Positions 4,249 through 7,547 of a stretch of 11,186 bases of DNA are shown piece after piece. Origin of the DNA: a virus (lineage: Duplodnaviria > Heunggongvirae > Uroviricota > Caudoviricetes); the IMG/VR virus record IMGVR_UViG_2671180603_000013, positions 1 to 11,186 of that record; one strand, 5' to 3'. Each line of letters opens with the position of its first letter. The stretch's first letter is position 1. Position numbers and translations under genes: made by a program. A model generated the notes under the pieces. The model was not told where the DNA came from, made no database searches, and saw only the letters and a list, made by a program, of their open reading frames with translations.

Positions 4249-4285
4249 TGCGGAATTAATTACGGACCGTTATTATTCTGCTCCC

Positions 4286-4361
4286 GGCCCTTTAGCTCAG
4301 TGGTGAGAGCGAGCGACTCATAATCGCCAGGTCGCTGGTTCAAATCCAGCAAGGGCCACCA
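4286..4361 (+). tRNA. ileZ: tRNA with CAU anticodon (Ile2 lysidine-type or Met), copy 1
   Basis: 76 nt cloverleaf read by hand: acceptor GGCCCTT/AAGGGCC, D-arm GCTC-AGTGGTGA-GAGC, anticodon loop CTCATAA, T-arm GCTGG-TTCAAAT-CCAGC, encoded CCA. Symbol given by analogy with the Stx-phage tRNA cluster, from memory. Confidence 0.85.
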
Positions 4362-4368
4362 TCACAAA

Positions 4369-4448
4369 CCGCCATTAGCTTATCAGGAAGAGCAGACGAC
4401 ACGATAACAGGGTTGTTGGTGCGGGGGCGGGTCCCCGATGGCGGTCCA
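4369..4448 (+). pseudogene. degenerate tRNA-like element (anticodon arm replaced, non-canonical T-loop)
   Basis: Acceptor (CCGCCAT/ATGGCGG) and 3' CCA are conserved relative to the intact paralog at 7367..7443, but the central 30 nt has no anticodon stem and the T-loop lacks TTCAA. Confidence 0.45.
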
Positions 4449-4461
4449 TTATCGGTATTCA

Positions 4462-4538
4462 GCGTTGTTAGCTCAGCCGGACAGAGCAATTGCCTTCTAA
4501 GCAATCGGTCACTGGTTCGAATCCAGTACAGCGCGCCA
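4462..4538 (+). tRNA. argO: tRNA-Arg (anticodon UCU), copy 1
   Basis: 77 nt cloverleaf: acceptor GCGTTGT/ACAGCGC (one G-U pair), anticodon stem ATTGC/GCAAT with loop CTTCTAA, T-arm ACTGG-TTCGAAT-CCAGT, CCA. Symbol by analogy, from memory. Confidence 0.85.
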
Positions 4539-4675
4539 TATTCATTCTTCCAGATTCCTTCCGGCAGAGCCTTATACTGAAATATACCTGGCTCAGGATA
4601 TTGTTGAAAATATTTTATGTTTGTCAAAAATAAAAGTTCTGTTAAGTATTGATTGAGTGTTTGTTATACGGTCTA

Positions 4676-5002
4676 ATGGTTTTTTCAGCATTAAATATTT
4701 ATCATTCATATGGTGTGGGTAGAGTGAATATTGATGAGGCGTCGGGGTGTTTCATCCTTAGGCAGCGTATTGATATAGTCAATGCAGCACGAGCAAAGGC
4801 CTTCAGCCGTTTGACAGTTTTGTTCTGTACTCCTGATCGTCTTTCGGGAAGAGACGTTATTATTCTGAATAGTGATGCTATACAGAGGGTTTGCGATGAG
4901 TTCATGGTTGCTAATTCAGAATTATTTGCTCTTGTTCAGGAGTACAACAGAATAGCCAGGACCTGTGGTATGGATGAACTTCGGATTACTCATCTGGGGT
5001 AG
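4676..5002 (+). CDS. hypothetical protein (108 aa from ATG 4676), inside the insertion that separates tRNA cluster 1 from RNA cassette A
   Basis: ORF with protein-like composition but no convincing ribosome-binding site; no recognised domain. Low confidence that it is expressed. Confidence 0.3.
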   Translation: MVFSALNIYHSYGVGRVNIDEASGCFILRQRIDIVNAARAKAFSRLTVLFCTPDRLSGRDVIILNSDAIQRVCDEFMVANSELFALVQEYNRIARTCGMDELRITHLG

Positions 5003-5204
5003 ATACATATCTGGATTATCACCTGTTACGGTAAAAAGTGATTGCTTACTGTTTTTGTGAATGGCATTGCAGCAGCCGGATAATGTCAGTGCTGGCTGAC
5101 GGTGTGCTGGTGGCGGGTGTGGTGGTTGTTGCTTTCCCGTTGCTGAAAAAGAAAACGCCAGACTGTTAGCCGGGTATCAGTTAGCGGGAGAAATTTTTAA
5201 ATAC

Positions 5205-5430
5205 TTCACAATTCAGGCGGTTGACTGTTGTCTGGTTTGCGGGGAGTTTGTTAAAAGAAACTGGCATGGTGAATCCCCCTGTGCGGAGGGGCAATCAGCG
5301 AGTAGGTATATGGGATAATCGCGGATTCAGGTGCTGGTACTGAATTCACCGGGAGGCACCCGGCACCATGCAATGGCACATAGCGCCACTCTCCAGCCCC
5401 TCTCCGGAGGGGCTGTTTATATTGATTTTG
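5205..5430 (+). ncRNA. RNA-like cassette A: conserved TCACAATTCAG / TTGAC(T/A) 5' motif, structured core, intrinsic terminator
   Basis: Paralogous to 7581..7795 and 8047..8280. GCATGGTGAAT (5264-5274) can pair with ATTC...ACCATGC (5344-5371), which is interrupted by a CCGGG/CCCGG hairpin. Ends in terminator AGCCCCTC-tccg-GAGGGGCT plus T-rich tail (5395-5429). Confidence 0.4.
5395..5429 (+). terminator. intrinsic terminator of cassette A
   Basis: 8 bp GC-rich stem, 4 nt loop, followed by GTTTATATTGATTTT. Confidence 0.6.
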
Positions 5431-5449
5431 TCAGATGTGAGTAAACTCC

Positions 5450-5785
5450 TTATGGACTTTGTTGTTTTAGTCCATAAGGACATATTTGCAGAGTGCAACG
5501 GTTATTAAAGCATTCATTCAATACGTTATCTGTATTTGTAGGGCATTCCTGGCTGTTTTTGATTAAATTCCAGAATGTTTTATTGAATGGTACTACGTTG
5601 TAAATGGTTACAGGTAGCACTTTGTTATTGAGCATGATGCCTGTGTGAGTCAGTGTAAATATACTTTCAGGAGGTAAGAAAGCATCCGATTGATACCAGA
5701 TTATTAATTTTATTTTACTCCATATGACTGAAAAAGATATTCCGCATGATGGCTGGATAACTGTATCAATCACAATCCACTTCAT
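5450..5785 (-). CDS. hypothetical protein (111 aa) in an AT-rich moron island
   Basis: Minus-strand ORF with a good ribosome-binding site (AAGGAA, about 6 nt before the ATG) and a candidate sigma70 promoter upstream (TTTACA ... TATACT, + coordinates about 5826-5852). The island is visibly AT-rich relative to its flanks. Cys-rich C-terminal half; no family recognised. Confidence 0.45.
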
Positions 5786-6045
5786 TTAGTTTCCTTGTTT
5801 ATGCCTTGCTGGTGATGTTCTGAAAAGTATAAATGATATTTTTGAATGTAAACCATAGAGCAGAATTATTTTTCTGATGTTGTTTATTGTTTATTTAAAT
5901 GCAGGGTGGTTTATATCTCGTCTTGTAGTTTATCCATGCATATCTGCTTGATAATCAGGTTTTTATTTAAGGTATGGTTTTGTGTTTTTTCTGTATTACA
6001 TGTCAGGTATTTTAAAGAATTATTTTTCAGATGGTGGAAAGAACC

Positions 6046-6192
6046 ATGGCATTTAAACACTATGATGTTGTCAGGGCGGCGCCGCCACAGCCATCTGCTC
6101 ATGCGTTGGGTTCACAAGCAAACCTCAGGCCCACTGCTTTGCGCAAAAGCAGAATGAGCCTATCAGAGACAGGCTTAATGATCCATGCTTAA
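6046..6192 (+). other. 48-codon ORF starting with a nanS-p start-codon fragment (recombination scar); its stop overlaps the methyltransferase start
   Basis: Bases 6046 to about 6085 match the first ~40 bp of the nanS-p gene at 8509 (both encode MAFKHYDVVRAA), then diverge. ATGCTTAA: methyltransferase ATG 6185-6187 overlaps this ORF's TAA 6190-6192. Confidence 0.35.
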
Positions 6193-7243
6193 TACTGTAA
6201 AAATATCCAGTTGTGAGTTAATCAACGCCGACTGCCTGGAATTTATCCGGTCGTTACCCGAAAATTCTGTTGACCTGATAGTCACGGACCCGCCGTACTT
6301 TAAAGTGAAGCCTGAGGGCTGGGATAACCAGTGGAAGGGCGACGATGATTACCTGAAGTGGCTGGACCAGTGTCTGGCGCAGTTCTGGCGGGTGCTGAAA
6401 CCTGCCGGAAGTCTTTACCTGTTCTGTGGTCATCGCCTGGCATCTGATATCGAAATCATGATGCGTGAACGCTTCAGTGTGCTGAACCATATTATCTGGG
6501 CGAAGCCGTCCGGACGCTGGAACGGATGCAACAAGGAAAGCCTGCGGGCGTATTTCCCCGCCACAGAGCGCATTCTGTTCGCGGAACATTATCAGGGGCC
6601 GTATCGTCCGAAAGATGCCGGGTATGCGGCGAAGGGCAGTGCACTGAAACAGCATGTGATGGCCCCGCTGATTTCTTACTTTCGTGATGCGCGAGCTGCC
6701 CTGGGGATAACGGCAAAACAGATTGCAGATGCCACAGGAAAGAAAAACATGGTGTCGCACTGGTTCAGTGCCGGTCAGTGGCAGTTGCCGAATGAAAGCG
6801 ATTATCTGAAATTACAGGCGCTGTTTGCCCGGGTGGCAGAAGAGAAGCATCGGCGTGGTGAACTGGAAAAGCTCCACCACCAGCTGGTGGATACGTATAC
6901 CTCACTGAACCGGCAGTATGCGGAGCTGCTGAGTGAATATAAACATCTGCGGCGGTATTTTGGCGTGACGGTGCAGGTGCCGTATACCGATGTGTGGACG
7001 CATAAACCGGTGCAGTTCTATCCCGGGAAACATCCGTGCGAAAAACCGGCAGAAATGCTGCAGCAGATAATCAGCGCTAGCAGTCGTCCGGGTGACCTGA
7101 TTGCAGATTTTTTCATGGGGTTGGGTTCGACAGTGAAAGCGGCACTGGCGCTCGGGCGTCGTGCAATTGGCGTTGAGCTGGAGACTGAACGTTTTGAGCA
7201 GACGGTTCGGGAAGTACAGGATTTAGTCAGCCAGAACGGATGA
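6185..7243 (+). CDS. DNA methyltransferase, beta-class N6-adenine/N4-cytosine type
   Basis: N-terminal catalytic motif IV DPPY (LIVTDPPYF) and C-terminal AdoMet motif I (DFFMGLGST), the circularly permuted order typical of beta-class amino-MTases. About 120 aa insert between them. No adjacent restriction-endonuclease-like ORF. Confidence 0.85.
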   Translation: MLNTVKISSCELINADCLEFIRSLPENSVDLIVTDPPYFKVKPEGWDNQWKGDDDYLKWLDQCLAQFWRVLKPAGSLYLFCGHRLASDIEIMMRERFSVLNHIIWAKPSGRWNGCNKESLRAYFPATERILFAEHYQGPYRPKDAGYAAKGSALKQHVMAPLISYFRDARAALGITAKQIADATGKKNMVSHWFSAGQWQLPNESDYLKLQALFARVAEEKHRRGELEKLHHQLVDTYTSLNRQYAELLSEYKHLRRYFGVTVQVPYTDVWTHKPVQFYPGKHPCEKPAEMLQQIISASSRPGDLIADFFMGLGSTVKAALALGRRAIGVELETERFEQTVREVQDLVSQNG

Positions 7244-7283
7244 TATTGAAGAATTAATTACGCGTCGTTATTATGCGGCTCCC

Positions 7284-7359
7284 GGCCCTTTAGCTCAGTG
7301 GTGAGAGCGAGCGACTCATAATCGCCAGGTCGCTGGTTCAAATCCAGCAAGGGCCACCA
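7284..7359 (+). tRNA. ileZ: tRNA with CAU anticodon (Ile2 lysidine-type or Met), copy 2
   Basis: Same 76 nt sequence as 4286..4361. Confidence 0.85.
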
Positions 7360-7366
7360 TCACATA

Positions 7367-7443
7367 CCGCCATTAGCTCATCAGGAAAGAGCGCCAGCCT
7401 TCGAAGCTGGCTGCGCGGGGTTCAAGTCCCCGATGGCGGTCCA
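7367..7443 (+). tRNA. argN: tRNA-Arg (anticodon UCG)
   Basis: 77 nt cloverleaf: acceptor CCGCCAT/ATGGCGG, D-arm GCTC-ATCAGGAAA-GAGC, anticodon stem CCAGC/GCTGG with loop CTTCGAA, T-arm CGGGG-TTCAAGT-CCCCG, discriminator T, CCA. Symbol by analogy, from memory. Confidence 0.8.
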
Positions 7444-7456
7444 TTATCTGCATCAT

Positions 7457-7533
7457 GCGTTGTTAGCTCAGCCGGACAGAGCAATTGCCTTCTAAGCAAT
7501 CGGTCACTGGTTCGAATCCAGTACAACGCGCCA
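7457..7533 (+). tRNA. argO: tRNA-Arg (anticodon UCU), copy 2
   Basis: As 4462..4538 but with a perfect acceptor stem (ACAACGC). Confidence 0.85.
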
Positions 7534-7547
7534 CACTTATTTTCCCT

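Follow-up and report, generated by a model that had tools for sequence, protein, structure and literature searches.

Two tRNA-STnc100 modules side by side in a Shigella sonnei draft scaffold: very probably two prophage remnants joined through single-N gaps

Can one prophage carry the same tRNA and small-RNA module twice in a row, each copy behind a different left neighbour? The question is raised by an 11,186-nt sequence of a tailed virus (Caudoviricetes; IMG/VR record IMGVR_UViG_2671180603_000013), hereafter the window, in which a sequence-only reading had described one module behind the antiterminator gene Q and its terminator and another behind a methyltransferase gene. Comparison of the window with itself confirmed the colinear repeat, in three direct blocks of 91-94% identity (4246-4389/7244-7387, 94%; 4431-4551/7426-7546, 91%; 5181-5399/7556-7774, 94%). 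The sequence proposed as the precise shared start, GAATTAATTACG, is present in both copies; it had been placed one to two bases off (it begins at 4253 and 7251), and the similarity itself already runs from TATTG, at 4246 and 7244.

Both modules are already known from late regions of the lambdoid and Stx type, as the ileZ-argN-argO cluster with the sRNA STnc100. Module 1 (B type; 4246-5424, plus strand) consists of tRNA-Ile2(CAU) (4286-4361, anticodon CAT), a degenerate argN (4367-4445) that retains a tRNA-like fold and gave no tRNA match at E<=1, tRNA-Arg(UCU) (4462-4538, anticodon TCT), an insert of 629 bp (4552-5180) holding a DUF3927 ORF (5038-5169), and STnc100 (RF02076; 5235-5424), all on the plus strand; RefSeq labels the same genes tRNA-Ile, tRNA-Arg and DUF3927. 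Module 2 (A type; 7244-8286, plus strand), found as the same set at the A locus of S. sonnei 53G, has at its left edge a promoter-like TTGAAG-N17-TATTAT (7246-7274), followed on the same strand by tRNA-Ile2 (7284-7359, anticodon CAT), tRNA-Arg(UCG) (7367-7443, TCG), tRNA-Arg(UCU) (7457-7533, TCT), a terminator (7548-7573), a first STnc100 copy (7610-7799), a degenerate one (7838-8011; 30.1 bits, below threshold) and a last one (8077-8286). For membership of RF02076 the covariance model had to match along its full length and to score above its gathering threshold; this threshold is 47 bits, and the three full-length copies reach 132.4, 123.6 and 161 bits over model positions 1-206. The anticodon order CAU (Ile2)/UCG/UCU is complete in module 2, and only its first and third members are kept in module 1; together with the insert on one side and a terminator found only on the other, this bears out the divergence that had been pointed out. 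Judging by the RefSeq annotation of identical genes, the CAU tRNA would be Ile2 rather than Met. Rare-codon supply is the standard idea for such phage tRNAs, and the codon counts in the window are consistent with it; the tRNAs of the modules would serve AUA, AGA/AGG and CGA/CGG, and would probably be transcribed from their own promoter at the left edge of the module. Each module also carries a terminator-ended sRNA of the STnc100/PasD family, and as a whole it is what lambdoid prophages ordinarily have as cargo at the site downstream of Q and pR'.

Regarding the tandem arrangement, we consider it very probable that it is not a real feature. Compared base by base, the public record CXDK01000149.1 (GCA_001252175.1) equals the window everywhere except at 2232 and 6087, where the record has N and the window has A. 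With A in place of N, the gaps were invisible to a reader of the window. These two positions (scaffold joins 1 and 2, neither of them stranded) are the exact boundaries of three blocks from two chromosomal loci. Block X (35-2231, plus strand) belongs to the S. sonnei A locus, a prophage remnant beside ompW, where it corresponds to 4616-6812; all of its 2,197 nt agree with L017 and L018 (100% identity), and its identity to 53G (L014 4616-6812) is 99.95%. Block Y (2233-6086, plus strand) gives one ungapped 3,854-bp match to the B locus, a second prophage remnant (B 4905-8758), with 99.82-99.87% identity and 5-7 mismatches to seven B loci (L020-L022 and L024-L027, 4905-8758), and with 5 mismatches and one gap to L023. 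Block Z (6088-11186, plus strand) resumes the A locus, at 99.94% identity to 53G (L014 7904-13002). At join 1 the A and B sequences are without homology and at join 2 B and A share at most a CC dinucleotide. The stray A at both joins, considered as a scar of illegitimate recombination or template switching, was dropped, both bases being N in the record.

The gene content of the blocks fits their origins. Block X carries, on the plus strand, a Rem-like ORF (within 35-2231), a DUF968 gene (590-1648) and a RusA gene (1649-2029), the latter two by Pfam, and ends 206 nt into the A-locus Q gene. Block Y opens with the 3' end of an IS21 element, known from its istB annotation (istB stop at 2364-2366; element end near 2423, approximately), and with an inverted terminal fragment, annotated as IS3-family transposase and running to 2580, which we take to be IS2. 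An IS-associated rearrangement was discarded as an explanation, since closed genomes have the IS21 and IS3-family remnants (2233-2580) as a native part of their B locus, where a full IS21 lies directly upstream. There follow, on the plus strand, hyp85 (2701-2958), RusA (2958-3332, Pfam RusA) and an antiterminator Q of 284 aa (3329-4183, Pfam Antiterm PF03589), the exact protein being encoded by closed S. sonnei genomes at their B locus, with a tR'-like intrinsic terminator (4223-4250, plus strand) directly after it. By eye, a weak promoter-like TTGATT-N17-TAAATT at 4148-4176, below the scan threshold, could give a transcript of ~68 nt; StxS membership is not claimed for this short Q-proximal transcript, the pR'-tR' unit of Stx phages measuring 258 nt and the Q type differing. 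Beyond module 1, Block Y holds the AT-rich (34.5% GC) gene of the anti-adapter protein IraM on the minus strand (5450-5785; 162 bits to NCBIfam NF007393, whose cutoff is 121) and the beginning (41 nt) of a DUF1737 pseudogene of the B locus (6046-6086, plus strand). Block Z comprises, around module 2, the DNA methyltransferase (6185-7243), a NanS-p-type esterase (8509-10362), a holin (10513-10728) and DUF1327/YdfR (10733-11047), all on the plus strand and by Pfam.

In closed S. sonnei chromosomes (CP104423.1, HE616528.1 for 53G and CBDDMI010000001.1; strain names from PMC5447701) a distance of 0.65-0.77 Mb separates the A locus from the B locus, and each has one module, made of three tRNAs and two STnc100 copies at A and of two tRNAs and one STnc100 copy at B. 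The claim that the modules are neighbours on one molecule thus fails for these genomes, and single modules, which the sequence-only reading had named as the outcome in long reads that would speak against it, are in substance what is seen, the long-read evidence coming from strains other than the isolate. The single-module versions for which it proposed to look in related prophages do exist, and are common in E. coli: 825 genomes have Q followed by the tRNAs and 315 have the methyltransferase, three tRNAs, sRNAs and esterase in succession. A duplication of the module in place, followed by divergence, would account for two colinear copies ~3 kb apart on the same strand, and was already refuted by the block identities: each copy matches its own S. 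sonnei locus at 99.8-100%, whereas the A and B copies match each other at only 87-96%. Moreover, of the 95 sites at which A and B differ in the RusA-Q stretch, the middle block is of B type at 93, and both allelic forms are single-copy in hundreds of E. coli genomes, so that we give this origin practically no credence.

The different left neighbours of the modules are real, and they arise from a cassette of 1,525 bp containing hyp65 and the methyltransferase gene. Indeed, the A and B loci differ by one clean indel of this length between ...TTTTTTAT and TATTG..., the A type alone carrying the cassette, precisely in the interval from tR' to the tRNA cluster. The B order reads Q-tR', tRNA-Ile2, pseudo-ArgN, tRNA-Arg(UCU), the 629-bp insert, STnc100 and iraM, and the A order Q-tR', hyp65, methyltransferase, tRNA-Ile2, Arg(UCG), Arg(UCU), terminator, STnc100 copies, esterase and lysis genes. 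With the cassette removed, the position of the module relative to Q-tR' is the same in both types. A mobile tRNA-plus-sRNA unit, inserting either after tR' or after the methyltransferase gene, had been suggested by the notion of a portable module; it would agree with the sharp start of the similarity at TATTG..GAATTAATTACG in both contexts and with the promoter-like element at the module edge. However, the comparison of the loci reveals an indel of the cassette rather than an insertion of the module, the module keeps its place once this indel is set aside, and no integrase, repeats or target duplication were found beside it. A portable unit is therefore not needed, and we regard it as very unlikely.

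The proximity of the modules is best explained, with high confidence, as a scaffolding artefact, in which three contigs were joined through single-N gaps. The idea that the late regions of two phages had been concatenated is hence right as to the two prophages, each block being 99.8-100% identical to a separate locus, and wrong as to the joining, which is by single-N gaps and not biological. In this short-read draft of an S. sonnei isolate, one contig would hold the left part of A, another the late-regulatory part of B and a third the right part of A, and the scaffolder would have linked them with one-N placeholders. Such a placeholder usually stands between contigs predicted to abut or overlap whose overlap was not found. 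A likely cause would be long exact repeats common to both prophages, which short reads do not resolve: read pairs from A would point into the collapsed copy within the B contig. The A and B loci share an exact run of 343 nt in the 3' half of Q (A 7010-7352 = B 6404-6746) and further exact runs of 39-69 nt. Six sibling draft scaffolds from this accession series (L028-L030 and L032-L034) also combine A and B blocks, in orders that disagree with one another; wherever they have a single N, two blocks meet, and three of their block edges lie at A 7352 or B 6746, where the 343-nt repeat ends. As a point against this account, the window's own block ends (A 6812, B 4905, B 8758 and A 7904) lie off the identified exact A/B repeats; there, further prophage copies, low coverage or trimming may have broken the contigs.

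Could this isolate nevertheless have the arrangement as a real feature? A B-prophage segment of 3.85 kb, from the IS21 tail to the start of DUF1737, would then have been copied into the A prophage, replacing 1.09 kb of A (the 3' part of Q, tR' and hyp65) by two illegitimate, non-homologous joins, for instance through template switching during replication. The three blocks are colinear, share one orientation and stand in a sensible gene order, with one intact Q-tR' upstream of all late genes, and a scaffolder requires read-pair links; both observations count against an artefact. In addition, five differences set Block Y apart from all of the eight B loci used as references, so that the isolate, or else a collapsed consensus, departs from them. 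Two of these five private differences are the A allele; being isolated, and only 2 among 95 informative sites, they were judged uninformative as to gene conversion between A and B. On the other side, both joins are N in the record and neither was sequenced through, the missing A segment holds the very 343-nt repeat that short-read assembly would collapse, the six siblings join the same loci in other orders with every single N at a join, and the arrangement is absent from the closed S. sonnei chromosomes read, from complete E. coli genomes and from phage records. A real rearrangement is in our opinion improbable, although somewhat less so than a mobile module. If true, it would be a fresh out-of-register recombinant, as models of mosaic phage evolution predict, and its hybrid late region would place two tRNA clusters, along with three to four copies of STnc100, under one B-type Q.

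The searches agree with the scaffolding artefact; the joins are unsupported rather than disproved. Used as queries, the join regions 5300-6500 and 2100-3100 were covered to 80% in none of 5,426 complete E. coli genomes, and 2955-8600 reached 80% coverage in no phage record; a coverage of at least 80% in the first E. coli searches was rejected as evidence of the tandem form, its pieces being joined out of order. A 30-mer over the right join, including the A that replaces N, had no exact match in GTDB representatives, IMG/VR or JGI metagenomes, and the junction ORFs none in the gene catalogue, likely because the joins are N in the record. The same probably holds for an apparent truncated Q of 75 aa (2026-2253, plus strand), an artefact ORF running over the N at 2232 whose product was not found by exact-sequence look-up; the A-locus Q is intact, with 273 aa, in closed genomes. 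A chimeric ORF of 48/53 aa (plus strand, ending at 6192) similarly crosses the N at 6087 and is not on record.

The joins thus account for the apparent hybrid prophage, for the truncated Q and for the small chimeric ORF, none of which is suited to a biological reading, and windows from draft assemblies should be checked for N replaced by A. As at least six sibling scaffolds mis-join A and B, prophage structure in this accession series is unreliable. The remaining biology is already known: two diverged tRNA-sRNA alleles in two S. sonnei prophage remnants, and the presence or absence of a methyltransferase cassette after tR'.

Finally, each module has close relatives. The ileZ-argN-argO cluster of Stx-converting and lambdoid phages (933W/Sp5 type) has the same anticodons in the same order (CAU/UCG/UCU) and occupies the same site, downstream of Q-tR' and upstream of moron and lysis genes, whereas the B-type module has a degenerate argN and the 629-bp insert after argO. 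In the Stx2a phage Stx2_EH1910, rusA, quuQ, a hypothetical gene, a methylase and three tRNAs follow one another as in the A locus, and the transcription start mapped between tR' and the tRNAs of an Stx2a phage (PMC7547250) fits the promoter-like site at 7246-7274. Unlike in Stx phages, stx genes are absent here and STnc100 copies take their position; with 124-161 bits against 47, three of these are full-length members of the STnc100 (RF02076)/PasD family, and copies 1 and 2 contain, as compared by eye, both STnc_100 PCR primer sequences of PMC12370729. Tree et al. (2014, PMC4104026) described convergent sRNA pairs at the moron site, which is located downstream of pR'. The layout here matches theirs: between the cargo and the conserved esterase ORF, the terminator of the plus-strand STnc100 (8256-8283) and a terminator on the minus strand (8315-8294) point at each other. 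The minus-strand element, a terminator with a U-rich stretch upstream (8287-8375, stem 8294-8315) facing the last STnc100 copy, has only a weak, OmrA-B-like Rfam match, and AgvB and AsxR (RF02702, RF02703) gave no match at E<=1 anywhere in the window, so that it is at most a candidate anti-sRNA. As for the arrangement itself, its likeness is to paralogous prophages mis-scaffolded in short-read drafts, with which it shares single-N joins, exact repeats and inconsistent orders among siblings.

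The module of tRNA and sRNA genes is doubled in the window, as had been noticed from the sequence; the string does contain the repeat, but the side-by-side placement of its two copies is very probably a scaffolding artefact. Three colinear direct-repeat blocks were obtained by a repeat search of the window against itself (4246-4389/7244-7387, 94% identity; 4431-4551/7426-7546, 91%; 5181-5399/7556-7774, 94%). The shared sequence had been said to start precisely at GAATTAATTACG, which is present at 4253 and 7251, but similarity begins a few bases earlier, at TATTG. The divergence between the modules proposed by the sequence-only reading, namely in the middle tRNA, an insert and a terminator restricted to the second module, was borne out on all three counts. 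According to ARAGORN, module 1 encodes tRNA(CAT) and tRNA-Arg(TCT), and module 2 tRNA(CAT), tRNA-Arg(TCG) and tRNA-Arg(TCT). At the place of the middle tRNA in module 1, ARAGORN and Rfam runs over the window returned no tRNA match; a degenerate argN (4367-4445), found in every B-type locus examined, folds tRNA-like with acceptor, D and T stems kept, a 7-bp stem and 3-nt loop in place of the anticodon arm, and a T-loop without the TTCAA motif. The insert of module 1 (629 bp, 4552-5180) occupies the place of the 5' half of the post-tRNA terminator hairpin, and the terminator at 7548-7573 occurs in module 2 only. This insert contains a 43-aa DUF3927 ORF (5038-5169) and an AT-rich ORF of 117 aa (4649-5002, 41% GC) with no family match, in a region unannotated in RefSeq for which some gene callers give a 92-aa product. 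Full-length STnc100 genes (RF02076) were located by Rfam at 5235-5424, 7610-7799 and 8077-8286, together with a sub-threshold copy at 7838-8011. The A-locus sRNA cassette is internally repeated (7556-8290), two full copies, each ending in a CCTCTCCGGAGGGG-type terminator, flanking the degenerate third, which has CCGCTCCGGTGGG.

Regarding the origin of the window, BLAST against the fetched loci splits it into three blocks with abrupt ends at 2232 and 6087, whose provenance was traced by exact-protein look-ups (methyltransferase and 284-aa Q). In closed Shigella sonnei chromosomes, the methyltransferase protein is encoded in the remnant of a prophage next to ompW (A locus); the identity of this locus with window 35-2231 and 6088-11186 is 99.9-100%. 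The 284-aa Q belongs to a second site of the same closed genomes (B locus), with which window 2233-6086 (block Y) forms one ungapped 3,854-bp match with 5-7 mismatches. The two loci lie 0.65-0.77 Mb apart on CP104423.1, HE616528.1 (53G) and CBDDMI010000001.1 (strain names from PMC5447701), and each closed locus holds one module, with three tRNAs and two STnc100 genes at A and two tRNAs and one STnc100 gene at B. An IS21 tail and an IS3-family fragment were considered as rearrangement scars and rejected, both being inside the ungapped B-locus match. Five differences distinguish block Y from each of the eight reference B loci, two corresponding to the A allele and two to the common E. coli iraM allele; as A-like sites number only 2 among the 95 that are A/B-informative, these private differences say little. 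Two positions in iraM, 5555 and 5565, set the eight S. sonnei reference B loci apart from both the window and E. coli. The gene itself (5450-5785, minus strand; 34.5% GC) has 6 ATA codons out of 112, i.e., 54 per 1,000, and lies ~1.1 kb downstream of a tRNA-Ile2 gene reading ATA.

The nature of the joins was revealed by the public record of the window, found via its RusA variant. The window and NCBI CXDK01000149.1 (11,186 bp; draft GCA_001252175.1) differ at two positions only, 2232 and 6087, where that record has N and the window A; each join is therefore a one-N scaffold gap, with no sequence linking the blocks. The Ns were apparently swapped for A, thereby hiding the scaffold joins from the reader. 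Such gaps would account for the odd lone A at each join and for fruitless junction searches: none of the complete E. coli genomes reached 80% coverage with a query across either block end, an exact match to the right-join 30-mer, in which 6087 is the substituted A, was absent from GTDB representatives, IMG/VR and JGI metagenomes, and a look-up found no ORFs on record crossing the joins. The proposal that late regions of two phages had been concatenated stands in that the copies come from two distinct prophage loci, but very probably not as a physical arrangement, the joins being gaps between loci far apart. In the closed genome LR213449.1, the usual right-flank genes of the B locus adjoin an IS left of the A locus (L016 1-2177 versus L020 10096-12337, the A and B loci compared), an arrangement that points to IS-mediated inversion between both prophage loci as a real event in this strain.

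What misled the scaffolder was probably the set of exact repeats common to both loci: one of 343 nt lies within the 3' half of Q (A 7010-7352 = B 6404-6746), and there are several shorter runs of 39-69 nt. The A segment absent from the window (6813-7903) includes the 343-nt repeat. The same RusA variant occurs in seven more draft contigs of the same accession series (L028-L034; GCA_001247155.1, GCA_001257435.1, GCA_001254155.1, GCA_001254135.1, GCA_001257935.1, GCA_001255175.1), six of which (L028-L030, L032-L034) are scaffolds that combine A and B blocks, the order differing from one scaffold to the next, with each single-N position being a block join and three block ends coinciding with an end of the 343-nt repeat (A 7352 or B 6746). 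Prophage structure across this draft series thus looks unreliable. CX-prefixed accessions of other S. sonnei isolates have been attributed to Holt et al. 2012 (PMC5447701), and from its accession series we infer that this isolate is in the same collection. The window's own contig ends (A 6812, B 4905, B 8758, A 7904) fall outside visible A/B repeats and may be due to more related prophage copies, coverage or trimming.

The different left neighbours of the modules are genuine. Comparison of closed A and B loci gives a clean 1,525-bp indel with hyp65 and the methyltransferase (L014, the A locus of 53G, 7535-9059 versus reference B locus L022, 6920/6921; window equivalents 4248/4249 and 7243/7244), edged by a short TAT/TATTG repeat and falling exactly between the end of tR', the terminator after Q (...TTTTTTAT), and TATTG..GAATTAATTACG. 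Hence, in both types, the tRNA module has the same place with respect to Q-tR', and it is the methyltransferase cassette that comes and goes. Single-module versions, whose existence had been left to be checked, are common: Q is directly followed by module 1 in 825 of 5,426 complete E. coli genomes, and methyltransferase, three tRNAs, sRNAs and esterase follow each other in 315. Initial counts at ≥80% coverage were misleading because pieces were summed whatever their order.

In the window, DUF968, RusA, a 75-aa Q fragment, IS remnants, hyp85, RusA, Q (284 aa) and module 1, all on the plus strand, are followed by iraM (minus strand), a DUF1737 start, the DNA methyltransferase, module 2, a NanS-p-type esterase and a holin; the region is the late-regulatory part of a lambdoid prophage of the Qin/Stx-phage type. 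Codon counts in its ORFs (per 1,000: ATA 13.7, AGA 7.4, AGG 4.3, CGG 12.1; E. coli averages ~4, ~2, ~1 and ~5) fit the usual view, in which the tRNAs serve the rare codons that phage and cargo genes use. Between 4000 and 8600, 18 terminator-like sites were counted versus 4.6 ± 2.3 expected from shuffles, most of them ending plus-strand tRNA or sRNA units, as expected where only Q-modified polymerase reads through. Facing the last STnc100 copy is a strong terminator on the minus strand (stem 8315-8294, then a T run), with a U-rich stretch ahead of it, in the same layout as the convergent sRNA pairs of EHEC prophages; this element (8287-8375) has no AgvB or AsxR match in Rfam. Earlier work has described both STnc100/PasD copies immediately upstream of the esterase and convergent sRNA terminators at this site (PMC4104026; bioRxiv 10.64898/2026.05.13.724894; PMC12370729); neither the modules nor their two contexts are new. 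A promoter-like TTGAAG-N17-TATTAT at the left edge of the module agrees with a start site of transcription that has been mapped, in an Stx2a phage, to the stretch between tR' and the tRNAs (PMC7547250). Finally, the gene order of this late-regulatory region recurs in the Stx2a phage Stx2_EH1910, which reads rusA-quuQ-hyp-methylase-3 tRNAs-stx2AB-iraM-esterase.
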